Shown: one piece after another, positions 33,137 to 39,095 of the stretch | Numbering within the stretch: the stretch's first letter is position 1 | How the letters are laid out: each line of letters starts with the position of its first letter | Sequence record: KC801932 | Length of the DNA: 64,000 bases | Direction: 5' to 3' (one strand) | Origin: Escherichia phage Lw1 | Notes under the pieces: model-generated | The model's database searches: none | Told to the model about the DNA's origin: nothing | Seen by the model: the letters and a program-made list of their open reading frames with translations, nothing else | Position numbers and translations under genes: made by a program

Positions 33137-33387
33137 AATTCACCCATTTCTTTCAGTTCAGTTTTGAGTTTTTCGAGCGTAGATTGATATTGAATGCCTT
33201 TCATGTTTGACAGACGGCTATAATACAATGTACGCGTTTCGTTAATTTCTGCCAACACTTCTTGATCTAACTTAGAAGAATCAGCACCGAATGCCATATG
33301 AAACAGCGCTTCGGCTGTAGGGGCAAACCCATGTTGAAAGGCTATACCCAGTTTTGGTTCAAATTGCATCAGGGAAACATTAGCCAT
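33133..33387 (-). CDS. hypothetical protein (84 aa; start at MANVSL)
   Basis: shortened from ORF-track call. Confidence 0.4.
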   Translation of the reverse strand: MANVSLMQFEPKLGIAFQHGFAPTAEALFHMAFGADSSKLDQEVLAEINETRTLYYSRLSNMKGIQYQSTLEKLKTELKEMGEL

Positions 33388-33673
33388 AATATTCTTCGTA
33401 GTCCTCGCAATCTGGGAGATACGTTTCGCAGAACATGCACAACGTGAAGAAAGTAGGCTGGCGAATCCCTGGATTATCAGGTAGATACATCCAGAACGTG
33501 TTAGCAAACACGATGAAGGTTTTCAGGTTTTCAACGGTTACTTCGCTGATACCATCATAACCGGATTGAGCAATAGCGCGTTCCAGGGGAACATGGTATT
33601 GCTGGCAGTAGTCGGCGTAATGTTCACTCAATACCATTGAGTTAGCCGCTTTTACGAGATCGATAATTTTCAT
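33380..33673 (-). CDS. hypothetical protein (97 aa)
   Basis: ORF. Confidence 0.45.
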   Translation of the reverse strand: MKIIDLVKAANSMVLSEHYADYCQQYHVPLERAIAQSGYDGISEVTVENLKTFIVFANTFWMYLPDNPGIRQPTFFTLCMFCETYLPDCEDYEEYYG

Positions 33674-34008
33674 GCTTTTACATATTCCACTTTAACAGGT
33701 TTGGCGATAAGGTGATCTTTGGTGTAACCTTGTCCGTCGCAAACATCACAAACGATTTTGAAATCTTCCATTTGGTCGACCCATCCATAATCAGGCAATC
33801 CAGAAGGGTACGTGTTGAAGGTTTTAACACTGTATCCTTTCCCATCACACTTAGGGCATTTATACGGGTATTTCGATTTGATCGCACTATACAATTGACC
33901 CAATGTGGTCGAATGATCAAAGTGTATAACAAATGCTTCAATGTCAGCAATACGCAGTTCGTTTGGCTTGATCACAGTAAACACATTTGAAGGTATGTTT
34001 GAGCGCAT
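33670..34008 (-). CDS. zinc-finger protein (CPKCDGKG ... CDVCDGQG)
   Basis: two CxxCxGxG motifs; start set at MRSNIP. Confidence 0.45.
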   Translation of the reverse strand: MRSNIPSNVFTVIKPNELRIADIEAFVIHFDHSTTLGQLYSAIKSKYPYKCPKCDGKGYSVKTFNTYPSGLPDYGWVDQMEDFKIVCDVCDGQGYTKDHLIAKPVKVEYVKA

Positions 34009-34250
34009 AATATATTTCTCACTTAAAGAATTTTTTGATGAAAGAGAGGAACAATCCACCACCGAACATGATCCAGTATCCCGCGCCGTCACCGTGAAAC
34101 AGGACGTAAACCGCGACACCATAACAAAAGATTTCTGCAATATTCAGTAAGTTTCTCATAATCCCCTCCCTTTTCTCTACACCAGGTATTTTACCAGAAA
34201 ATAGACTACTGTCAACAACAAAGTTTTATCAACGATACGATCACCAGTCA

Positions 34251-34403: not shown

Positions 34404-34458
34404 TGTTTCGACACCCCTAATATAACAAAAGCCCCTGCACGAATGCAAGGGCTTTTTC
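34404..34458 (-). promoter_or_regulatory. PeSL-like cassette 6
   Basis: core tgtttcgacacccctaatataac plus hairpin agcccctgcacgaatgcaagggct. Confidence 0.6.
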
Positions 34459-34626
34459 AAATATTTTTCAACATGCGTAGTTGAGGTGGACAATCTGGAG
34501 AAGCAATCAAACGATCCAGGCGAGACATAACGCGACGGTATCCGTCATACTCAAACTTGATTTTAGGCGGTACGTAGTTCACGTTAATTGCGTTGCGCGT
34601 GTTAATGTTCGCTTCGTACTCAGGGA

Positions 34627-35148
34627 TCACGAACTCTCGCCGCGATGTTCGATGTGCTCCGTGATATCCTCAACAGTCTTATCAAGGTCCAGAGATTCAG
34701 CATCTTCCTTGATAATAGTCAAATCTACAGGCAGTGTCAACAGTCTTTTCACTCCGCTGATATCTTCGATACGAGAATCATACGCAAGGGTAACATGCGG
34801 TTTGTAGTTGTCAAAATCGTAAGTCGCTCCGGCATCCATCGCATCATTGAAACGGCTATGCAGATAATCAGACTCCAGAACACCGACGATAGTGTTACCG
34901 TATTTTGTGTCCCACTTCTCTACGTCAACCAGTCGGGCAGGTTCAGAGATACCAGAGGCAGGGAACAAATCAACCGTCTTACGGCTATACACAATCGTTG
35001 TATGAAGTTTTTCAGCAGACACCGGATTCTCTACACCCAGAAGTTTTTGCACTTGTGCAAGCGCTTCACAGGAAGCCTGATCGAACTTCGCACACATATA
35101 GATCCCCGAATCAACTACGGGTTTCGCAACTTCAATAAAACTTTTCAT
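34627..35148 (-). CDS. acb1: 2H phosphoesterase, Acb1-like anti-CBASS nuclease (T4 gene 57B position)
   Basis: two H-x-T-x motifs (LHTTIVYS and PHVTLAYD) about 70 aa apart; immediately downstream of 57A as 57B is in T4. Confidence 0.7.
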   Translation of the reverse strand: MKSFIEVAKPVVDSGIYMCAKFDQASCEALAQVQKLLGVENPVSAEKLHTTIVYSRKTVDLFPASGISEPARLVDVEKWDTKYGNTIVGVLESDYLHSRFNDAMDAGATYDFDNYKPHVTLAYDSRIEDISGVKRLLTLPVDLTIIKEDAESLDLDKTVEDITEHIEHRGESS

Positions 35149-35160
35149 GTGTACTCCAAA

Positions 35161-35185
35161 TGAAAAAGGGGCCGAAGCCCCTAGT
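35161..35185 (-). terminator. hairpin ggggcttcggcccc + T5 terminator between 57A and acb1
   Basis: same stem-loop as 20313-20335. Confidence 0.6.
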
Positions 35186-35202
35186 GGTTAAACGCCTAAG
35201 CG

Positions 35203-35454
35203 TTAAGCATCTTTTGTTTCTGCGTCATCGGCTTCCGGCAGAAGTGCTTTGATAGCACCCAGCAGAGCATCAGGGGTTACACCCTGGGAACCGTCGATTT
35301 CCAGCAGACCGCAAATTTGACCGACGAGTTGGCGATGGCTTTGCAGTTCCTGATCTTTACCCTGAATGATTTCGTTCAGATCGAATACACGGGCTTTCAG
35401 AAGCAGGATGTCACTTTGCAGTTGCTGGGTTTGGTTTTTGGTTTGTTCAGTCAT
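35203..35454 (-). CDS. 57A: tail fibre assembly chaperone gp57A
   Basis: 83 aa, coiled-coil, acidic C-terminus; recalled similarity to T4 gp57A; synteny with gene 1. Confidence 0.75.
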   Translation of the reverse strand: MTEQTKNQTQQLQSDILLLKARVFDLNEIIQGKDQELQSHRQLVGQICGLLEIDGSQGVTPDALLGAIKALLPEADDAETKDA

Positions 35455-35465
35455 TGTTTACACTC

Positions 35466-36125
35466 TTAAAAGTTAAATACATTCAGCACGTCAGTTTTCA
35501 ATTCACCAAGCGTACCATTATTTAGGATGATAATATCGTTTGGTTGGGGTTTCAATCCTTTCTCAGTTGAATGGCTATCGTCTTCCCCAGTTTCGCGTTC
35601 GATGAATACAAATTTAGTCCCGAACTTGCTCAGGTATTTATATTCATGTTTTTGTCGAACGTCTGTAATGATAAAGTGATCTTTATCGGATTTCAAGATT
35701 TTCTTCAATACAATGTCAGTCCATACAGAATCGTTCTCATTGCAAACGATGTCAGTACCGAAAACCTGCATCAAACGGCGTATTGTCCAGGGATGTTTGT
35801 TTGTTTGGCAAATTTCATACGCGATGATATCAGCATTATTAAGCCAGTACCCGCGTTTAGTCAACGATTCAATGCCATTAGCAAACAGCATACGCGCACC
35901 TTCGTTAGACATCAACAGGGGTGCTTCCCGATCCCCTGAATAGAATGGGTTTGTTTTAGAGAGTTCTCGCAGATAGCGATCCCCTGATGCAGACATTCCA
36001 TTTCTCAGGATACTCTTTATTTCATCAGCAAGCGCGATTGCTTCAACGTTCTGATAGTTATCCAAAACGAATTGAGAAACGGTGTCTTTACCTGTTCTCT
36101 TTTTTCCGCAAATACCATAAATCAT
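35466..36125 (-). CDS. 1: deoxynucleoside monophosphate kinase gp1
   Basis: P-loop GICGKKRTGKDT, WTIRRLMQVFGTD, ITDVRQ; collinear with recalled T4 gp1. Confidence 0.85.
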   Translation of the reverse strand: MIYGICGKKRTGKDTVSQFVLDNYQNVEAIALADEIKSILRNGMSASGDRYLRELSKTNPFYSGDREAPLLMSNEGARMLFANGIESLTKRGYWLNNADIIAYEICQTNKHPWTIRRLMQVFGTDIVCNENDSVWTDIVLKKILKSDKDHFIITDVRQKHEYKYLSKFGTKFVFIERETGEDDSHSTEKGLKPQPNDIIILNNGTLGELKTDVLNVFNF

Positions 36126-36695: not shown

Positions 36696-36860
36696 CGTGA
36701 GCGAAGCGAACACACGAACGAAGTGAGTGTTTTTAACTCAACTACATAATTATATATTTATATTTTATATATAGAGAAAAATGTAGTTTTTGGTATGGTT
36801 TTTAACCAACTGTAAACTATCCGTCTTCGCTTCGCTTGACGGAACTCGCTTCGCTCGTGA
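36696..36860. repeat. composite inverted-repeat element: GAGCGAAGCGA / TCGCTTCGCTC arms flanking an AT-rich core with nested CTACAT..ATGTAG palindrome
   Basis: left arm 36699-36709, right arms 36827-36836 and 36846-36856; alternating TA tract 36750-36775; TATAAATA on minus strand at 36755-36762. Confidence 0.6.
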
Positions 36861-36931
36861 TCTTGAAAAACTATTTGACCCTTTCAATAAATAGGTATAT
36901 CATACCTATACTTTCAAAAGAGATTGAAAAC

Positions 36932-37717
36932 ATGAAATCATTCAAAGAACTACTGTCTGAATCTGTTCAGACCAAAAAATTTGCTAAAACTGTTGATCTG
37001 GTTGACCGTGGTAATGCTTCAAAAGGTCAGATCGGTTTCCTGCACTTTGCACACGGTGCTGATTACGATGTGTATGCGCCGGACTCTCACGATCTCGCCT
37101 ACTTCGGTAAAGGTGTTGTTCGCCTGAAAGGTAAAACCACTGGTAAAACTCAGGCTGCATATGTTGACTGGGCGAAAGGTACGGTTTCTTTCTATAGCGG
37201 CGATCCGGCAGATGACCTGAAATTCGACAAGCCAGCGAAATTCAAAGGCGCTTCCCTGTACAAAGAAGCCGAAGAAAATCTGGATCTGTATAATCAGTTA
37301 GCGGAAGACTTCGAAATTGATGTACCGATGGATGAAGCACTGGTGAAAGGTAAGGTGTACAAGCTCCCAAGCAACGATATGCGCTTGCTGTATACCGGAC
37401 GTACCAAAAACAAGCCTACAGGTGAATACGCTGTGTTTACGGTTGTAGATGCCTCCGGTAAGCCTCGTCTGGTATCGGGTAAACGATTTACCCAGGAATA
37501 CAAAGGCGATATGCTGTCTAAACTGGTTCTCGCTGAATCGGAAGATCTGAACGAGGCCGCTAAAGGCATTCGCGAAAAAGTTATTGCGGTGTTGGTGAAG
37601 CGCGGGTTTAACGAAAAAGATGCAGAAAAGATGGTTGATAAAAACCTAAAAGATGCGATGAAAGTTCGCCCTGGTGCAACTCCAGGAAAACTAGCGGAAA
37701 TCGTGAGCACCTTGTAA
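36932..37717 (+). CDS. candidate internal head protein with capsid targeting sequence
   Basis: N-terminus MKSFKELLSE matches the T4 IP CTS pattern MKTYQEFIAE with an L-x-E protease site; E. coli-optimal codon usage; AATAAATA upstream; plus-strand insert in minus-strand module. Confidence 0.5.
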   Translation: MKSFKELLSESVQTKKFAKTVDLVDRGNASKGQIGFLHFAHGADYDVYAPDSHDLAYFGKGVVRLKGKTTGKTQAAYVDWAKGTVSFYSGDPADDLKFDKPAKFKGASLYKEAEENLDLYNQLAEDFEIDVPMDEALVKGKVYKLPSNDMRLLYTGRTKNKPTGEYAVFTVVDASGKPRLVSGKRFTQEYKGDMLSKLVLAESEDLNEAAKGIREKVIAVLVKRGFNEKDAEKMVDKNLKDAMKVRPGATPGKLAEIVSTL

Positions 37718-38606: not shown

Positions 38607-38627
38607 AATTCCCTCCGTTTAGGGTAT

Positions 38628-39095
38628 TTATTGCCCTTTCCATCCAAATACACGTTTCAACGTGTCTTCTGTGATGATCTTAAACTCCCAGCCCTTTTGT
38701 TTTGCTGCTGCATTAGCGGCTTTCCATTTGTCAATGTTTACTGCATAAGTATACAGCGCATCAACAAATTTCTTTTTGTTGTGAACGTTGTTATTCGCTG
38801 GTTTCGGTGGTGGCAATGTTTCTTTCATCGGTTTGACTTCCCATAGGTAGGTCACTCCGTTATCCATTTCAACATAAAAATCCATGAAGTAACGCCGTCT
38901 TTTACCGTCTGCGTTGCTGAAATAGGGGATAACAACCTCTTCACTGTTCCAGCGCTTTACATGCGGGTTTCGATCAAGCCAGTTCATAATATATTTTTCC
39001 CAGCTTGAACGATACGTTATCTTTCGGGGATCGCCTTTATATTTTGTGATGTTCTGGGGCATAAAAGACCCCTTGTACGTCTGTCTTCCAGCCAT
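38628..39095 (-). CDS. 4: head completion protein gp4
   Basis: 155 aa; MAG.QTYKGSF...KYKG...ITYRSSWE...EE..IPYFS recalled from T4 gp4; divergent from gene 53. Confidence 0.8.
   Translation of the reverse strand: MAGRQTYKGSFMPQNITKYKGDPRKITYRSSWEKYIMNWLDRNPHVKRWNSEEVVIPYFSNADGKRRRYFMDFYVEMDNGVTYLWEVKPMKETLPPPKPANNNVHNKKKFVDALYTYAVNIDKWKAANAAAKQKGWEFKIITEDTLKRVFGWKGQ

Follow-up and report, generated by a model that had tools for sequence, protein, structure and literature searches.

The stretch analysed here (64,000 nucleotides of Escherichia phage Lw1, sequence record KC801932; hereafter the window) carries on its minus strand a gene for a 173-aa protein, acb1 or gene 57B, which is followed by the remnant of a second gene and preceded by genes 57A, 1 and 3 (Table 1; the end coordinate of the acb1 ORF counts the stop codon). 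The start codon of acb1 is secure, because the N-terminus MKSF(I/L)E is shared across the clade, being common to all close clade homologues of the protein in an alignment of 25 homologues. The order gp3, gp1, 57A, 57B is kept as in T4, FBB1, RB43 and RB16; thus the position directly downstream of 57A, which the first-pass annotation had equated with that of T4 57B, was borne out by the PHROG match of 57A and by the same gene order in T4. An antisense ORF of 172 aa at 34645..35163 (+) is without a family match and was rejected as a shadow ORF. A tblastn search of the 64 kb found no second Acb1 paralogue in the window.

Table 1. Features of the acb1 locus in the window.
Feature	Position	Strand	Remarks
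Gene 3, tail-tube family	upstream of gene 1	same strand	PHROG 45
Gene 1, dNMP kinase	35466..36125	(-)	PF21448, E 3.3e-49
Late-promoter-like motif TATAAATA	35635-35642		inside gene 1
Gene 57A, tail fiber chaperone	35203..35454	(-)	PHROG 1002, E 7.8e-26; the gp57A CDS of the RB16 record
Terminator-like GC hairpin with T-run	35167..35182	(-)	between 57A and acb1; consensus match only
Shine-Dalgarno-like GGAG	35154..35157	(-)	read from the sequence; 5-nt spacer to the acb1 ATG
acb1 / gene 57B CDS	34627..35148	(-)	ATG ORF, 173 aa and TGA stop; Acb1-family 2H phosphoesterase
N-terminal 14 residues, MKSFIEVAKPVVDS	35107..35148	(-)	before the conserved G-I-Y; predicted flexible; candidate N-terminal lid
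Catalytic motif 1, H49-T-T51-I	34993..35004	(-)	T4 H44/T46; invariant in 25 homologues
Catalytic motif 2, H118-V-T120-L	34786..34797	(-)	T4 H113/T115; invariant in 25 homologues
Stacking aromatics Y17, W79, F112			T4 Y12, W74, F107; identical in a three-way alignment
E151	34696..34698	(-)	T4 E141, adenine N6 reader; invariant alignment column
K157	34678..34680	(-)	at the lid W147 position of T4/FBB1; stacking residue not conserved
Residues 164-170 (EHIEHRG)	34639..34659	(-)	remnant of the first tail β-strand; disordered in the window model
Deletion junction	34632..34636	(-)	five bases matching neither flank; new C-terminus E-S-S-stop
57-aa remnant ORF	34457..34630	(-)	GTG start overlaps the acb1 TGA; C-terminal third of RB43ORF195c (172 aa)
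Terminator-like 13-bp hairpin	34427..34456	(-)	after the remnant ORF; conserved in RB43 and KKP_3664

The strong hairpin behind the remnant ORF is likely to be the end of the transcription unit. Several other features were noted around the locus. The 57A copy of the window (35203-35463) differs from that of RB16 by several substitutions and a 3-codon deletion, and the start annotated in RB16 cannot be used in the window, where it runs into an in-frame stop; the likely start is the ATG at 35454. Between genes 3 and 2 a 293-aa ORF without a Pfam match (36836-37717, +) occupies the position of RB16p185, where T4 has no gene. At 38621-38634, between genes 4 and 2, the window is without the GIY-YIG Seg-like homing endonuclease gene of RB16 (L001 839-1517), and the flanks join within ~12 nt. 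Downstream of acb1, in a string of small genes where T4 has ipI and a tRNA cluster, a small protein (33670-34140, -; 112 aa in the RB16 annotation) matches phrog_6730 and carries a DnaJ-type CXXCXGXG zinc-finger signature that is sub-threshold in Pfam (E 5e-4).

The product of acb1 is almost certainly an Acb1-family 2H phosphodiesterase, and the analysis supports the first-pass annotation, which had proposed an Acb1-like enzyme from synteny and from two H-x-T-x motifs about 70 residues apart. Both motifs are present (HTTI at residues 49-52 and HVTL at 118-121, 69 residues apart), and since both fall inside a full-length match to the Pfam Acb1 domain the pair represents more than chance. This match (PF23474; 163.5 bits, E 3.3e-48) runs from residue 15 to 158 and takes in positions 2-142 of the 144 in the profile, with a score six-fold above the gathering cut-off of 27 bits. 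By BLASTP the protein is 41% identical to T4 gp57B (NP_049750.1) over 143 aa (E 1e-34), so that the alignment extends beyond the two motifs, and phmmer matched it to the crystallised sequence of Acb1 of Erwinia phage FBB1 (7T26/7T27) with E 4e-25. The fold was established by an AlphaFold2 model of the 173-aa protein, based on 25 homologues, with a mean pLDDT of 85 and block means of 85-98 across residues 11-150, whose top Foldseek matches are 7T27/7T26 (E 2e-14). The protein is an orthologue of T4 gp57B, which the earlier annotation had rightly named as the founding Acb1 and which has been shown biochemically to be a cGAMP nuclease (Hobbs et al. 2022, PMC9117128). As such the gene is already known in kind; it is identical to the deposited RB16 57B and lies squarely inside a curated family.

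In T4 Acb1 residues H44, T46, H113 and T115 form the catalytic tetrad, Y12, W74, F107 and W147 stack on the ligand and E141 makes an adenine-specific contact; Hobbs et al. assayed ten Acb1 homologues, and each of them cleaved both 3'3'-cGAMP and cAAA (PMC9117128). The window protein shares with T4 Acb1 the Pfam family, the HxT/HxT tetrad, the Y/W/F stackers, the adenine-reading glutamate and the slot after 57A. It differs in its length (173 aa versus 152 aa in T4), in the replacement of the lid tryptophan W147 by a lysine, and in its C-terminus, where 17 disordered residues are left over from a tail domain never present in T4; in T4 the next gene downstream is ipI, which is not the case in the window. 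For the window acb1 we infer expression, catalysis, the substrate range and an anti-CBASS phenotype. By homology with the T4 and FBB1 enzymes, Acb1 would after infection take the cyclic di- and trinucleotides of CBASS into a U-shaped pocket, in which Y17, W79 and F112 would stack on the bases and E151 would read out the adenine N6. The tetrad formed by H49/T51 and H118/T120 would then, by His/Thr acid-base catalysis and without a metal, promote attack on the 3'-5' bond by the 2'-OH of adenosine, leading through a 2',3'-cyclic phosphate intermediate to a linear 3'-phosphate product. The effector of CBASS would stay off and abortive infection would be avoided.

DNA alignment against RB43 and Citrobacter phage KKP_3664 established that the 173-aa acb1 is a C-terminally truncated allele of a 207-aa form found in relatives. 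In both of these phages a 624-bp 57B is followed by a 519-bp gene, and ~472 bp of their sequence are absent from the window and from RB16. The deletion took away the final ~37 codons of 57B, the spacer and, from the gene that follows, the initial ~115 codons (two thirds); correspondingly, 1001 nt of the window are spread, in two pieces, over 1472-1980 nt in all other top relatives. No microhomology was seen at the deletion junction in the DNA alignment. The deletion did not fuse acb1 in frame with the gene behind it, as the frames differ and the acb1 TGA overlaps the GTG of the remnant ORF. The truncation falls beyond the end of the Pfam Acb1 domain, and residues 157-173 are predicted to be disordered in the window model. 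The remnant ORF matches positions 126-180 of the 180 in the phrog_7718 profile. This 57-aa stub is annotated as a gene in RB16, and its parent is intact in RB43 (ORF195c) and KKP_3664; for RB43ORF195c we found no Pfam, PDB or functional PHROG annotation.

The window acb1 is identical to RB16 57B at 522 of 522 nucleotides, and lies together with the deletion junction in a 710-nt block (34514-35223) that is 100% identical to RB16. The flanks of the block are 90-97% identical, so RB16 and the window represent two distinguishable genomes; an identical block in divergent flanks indicates that the truncated allele was shared by descent or by exchange. Dense mismatches adjoin the block (62 differences in 33200-33400 and 20 in 35400-35600), a pattern typical of recombinational mosaicism. 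The window comes from an RB16-like Pseudotevenvirus, and over 14 kb it is 90-94% identical to Citrobacter phages and RB16. In a search of 50,697 phage genomes (INPHARED) the junction sequence turned up in the two RB16 records and nowhere else, and in IMG/VR it was confined to the entry of RB16 itself, while the exact 173-aa protein was found only on the RB16 record in a large assembly collection. Among roughly 177 matched relatives the deletion is private to RB16 and the window.

The closest homologues of the window protein have 207-208 aa and past the sequence ...TEHIEHRG read on with DKWVILNQDRTKELGEYDSKEAAEKRLRQIEYFK. The 207-aa relatives (P0001, RB43, KKP_3664 and the Klebsiella phage Miro-like form) lie at the same locus and are 79-97% identical to window residues 1-170. 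The RB43-type enzyme of the Pseudotevenvirus/Slopekvirus group has ~37 extra residues (RGDKWVILNQDRTKELGEYDSKEAAEKRLRQIEYFK), whereas the window and RB16 forms are cut after the first β-strand of this tail. In a 207-aa model the tail is a β-β-β-α mini-domain of ~40 aa (residues 165-206, pLDDT 77-88; strand E165-169 in P0001), and pTM falls from 0.77 in the 173-aa model to 0.65 with the tail, the placement of which relative to the core is uncertain. As modelled, the tail would be a separately tethered domain outside the pocket. It is assigned to phrog_3684 and its fold is weakly YegP/UPF0339-like; no sequence relatives were found in Pfam or the PDB, and tblastn over the 64-kb window gave only the 10-residue remnant.

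The phrog_3684 module is mobile and was also met in other contexts. About 170 Pseudotevenvirus/Slopekvirus records have it at the C-terminus of Acb1 (RB43: L004 2060-2176); in Cba120-like Ackermannviridae it is free-standing as a 65-aa protein (Cba120 orf223, L007 1941-2138), and in Salmonella phage Vi II-E1 it makes up the N-terminal residues ~27-72 of a head-module protein of 496 aa (VIP0015, L006 2408-3898). The gene of the latter, a type found in 45-kb siphoviruses, stands just upstream of the head decoration gene.

The clade also includes natural orthologues of 157-174 aa that have no tail, among them P0012 (from a 175-kb contig) and that of Pantoea phage Phynn. Some members have their natural end at ...DIT(G), with neither tail nor tryptophan, and three others (P0003, P0009 and P0016) carry different stubs directly after DITE(H). 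These natural ends and differing stubs indicate repeated loss or exchange of the tail.

Regarding the lid, the C-terminal segment 145-152 of FBB1 Acb1 (7T26/7T27) contains W147 and becomes ordered over the ligand, whereas the window protein has LDLDK followed by unrelated sequence. The whole RB16 clade has LDLDK at the W147 position in the alignment of 25 homologues, and residues 152-173 of the window protein include no aromatic residue. Several other Pfam-Acb1 members (P0022-P0025) are also without the lid tryptophan, likewise the solved PDE-9 (9Q2G/9Q2Y, labelled Acb1 in the PDB); hence the C-terminal Trp lid is a trait of the T4 subgroup and not of the whole family. PDE-9, a 2H enzyme of Burkholderia phage BCSR5, has been placed in the same structural group as T4 Acb1 but has an N-terminal, not a C-terminal, lid, a segment of about 15 residues closing over the active site (Doherty et al. 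2025, bioRxiv 10.1101/2025.08.21.671373). According to the same authors PDE-9, unlike T4 Acb1, spares 2'3'-c-di-AMP and so does not trigger Panoptes; T4 Acb1 without its lid (Δ145-152) showed no activity when assayed for Panoptes activation, PDE-9 without its lid still degraded 3'3'-cGAMP, and specificity was placed in the core and not in the lid (bioRxiv 10.1101/2025.08.21.671373).

The N-terminus of the window protein is five residues longer than in T4/FBB1 Acb1, and residues 1-7 of the model have a pLDDT below 50. Among 28 family sequences compared, the four that bear the tryptophan have 8-9 residues ahead of the first β-strand, and the Trp-less members have 11-21, with one exception of 9 residues that is tail-bearing. 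PDE-9 is 19-20% identical to the window core and its N-terminal sequence is unrelated; no similarity of the 14-residue N-terminus to the PDE-9 lid was found by sequence, and lids in general are not reliably modelled. Since PDE-9 provides the precedent of an N-terminal lid, and the 14 residues are clade-conserved and modelled with low confidence, it is plausible, if conjectural, that they may serve as an alternative lid.

We consider it very likely that the window protein is active against CBASS as a nuclease with the mechanism of T4 Acb1. Activity would most probably be retained, given the intact catalytic core and the existence of tail-less orthologues in nature; persistence of the allele, carried by the two distinguishable genomes of RB16 and the window, also counts for activity. 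No published tests or discussion of the RB16/RB43-type Acb1, of its tail module or of the deletion were found in the literature that could be searched, the supplements of Hobbs et al. included. Counted against an active enzyme are the change of W147 to lysine, given the inactivity of T4 Acb1 Δ145-152 in the Panoptes assay, and the terminator-like hairpin between 57A and acb1. The activity could in principle be that of a generic 2H enzyme with RNA ends as its substrate, either of the RNA ligase/LigT type or a 2',3'-cyclic phosphodiesterase, for the family goes by the name 'RNA ligase' in PHROG 755 and in many GenBank records, and there are weak matches to 2_5_RNA_ligase2 (PF13563) and LigT_PEase (PF02834). 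These matches reach however only 15.2 and 13.1 bits where 27 and 23.3 would be required, compared with the 163.5 bits obtained with Acb1, and the T4 RefSeq entry also labels 57B 'RNA ligase' although this protein is biochemically the cGAMP nuclease Acb1 (PMC9117128), which makes such an enzyme extremely improbable.

Also counted against an active enzyme is that within the INPHARED records and IMG/VR the allele with the deletion turned up in RB16 alone, so that it could be a recent, mildly deleterious lesion. In a rival reading the protein would be a crippled form on its way to a pseudogene, the deletion and the missing lid tryptophan together having left a 2H core that still folds but is poor at binding or cleaving CBASS signals; the private distribution of the deletion among the relatives, the disordered C-terminus, the need of T4 Acb1 for its lid in vivo (bioRxiv 10.1101/2025.08.21.671373) and the destruction of two thirds of the downstream gene in the same event are all consistent with it. 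We regard this as improbable, in that every catalytic and base-contacting residue of the core is intact, tail-less and Trp-less orthologues ending in ...DIT(G) are common in the clade, lid-less PDE-9 kept its activity on 3'3'-cGAMP (bioRxiv 10.1101/2025.08.21.671373), and the tail is modelled as tethered apart from the pocket, with a lower pTM when it is included. Compatible with activity, though on balance rather unlikely, is a substrate range narrowed by the W-less C-terminus and the loss of the tail, for instance one sparing 2'3'-c-di-AMP, by which the phage would evade CBASS and leave Panoptes-type decoy-signal systems untripped. Enzymes of the Acb1 group do differ in cleavage of 2'3'-c-di-AMP, which decides Panoptes activation (bioRxiv 10.1101/2025.08.21.671373), and both the longer N-termini of Trp-less members, resembling the N-terminal-lid PDE-9, and the repeated loss or replacement of the tail right after DITE(H) in P0003, P0009 and P0016 point in this direction. 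The same paper, however, locates specificity in the core (bioRxiv 10.1101/2025.08.21.671373), and the window core is 19-20% identical to PDE-9 compared with 37-41% to T4/FBB1.

For the preferred reading, an active Acb1, the meaning is in the first place that of a routine annotation, by which an RB16-like coliphage is credited with an anti-CBASS nuclease and is predicted to resist CBASS signalling through adenine-containing cyclic di- and trinucleotides. What is new is a small comparative lead, the tail module and its deletion, and not a discovery. The tailed 207-aa form of RB43 and others and the tail-less 173-aa form of RB16 and the window phage represent a natural matched pair, and in conjunction with the clade-wide replacement of the lid tryptophan they make the tuning of Acb1 activity and specificity by lid and accessory elements testable with existing phages. 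The point is of consequence since Panoptes-type defences sense broad Acb1 activity itself. A more far-reaching idea, to which we give a low probability, is that the Pseudotevenvirus/Slopekvirus Acb1 clade represents an undescribed architecture, without a Trp lid, with a conserved, extended N-terminus as a possible lid and with a mobile phrog_3684 module that confers a second activity or targeting. The RB16/window allele would then be a natural knock-out of the module that shifts the substrate range or the defences triggered (e.g. Panoptes), and the added role of the module might be, for example, partner binding, virion association or regulation.

As a passing observation, residues 484-591 of PDB 8HDS chain A, the C-terminal part of the portal of cyanophage Pam3, align with the Acb1 core (E 4e-4) and carry both H-x-T/S motifs, as HVTIAYS and HISLS; this part of the portal would be a virion-borne 2H domain.
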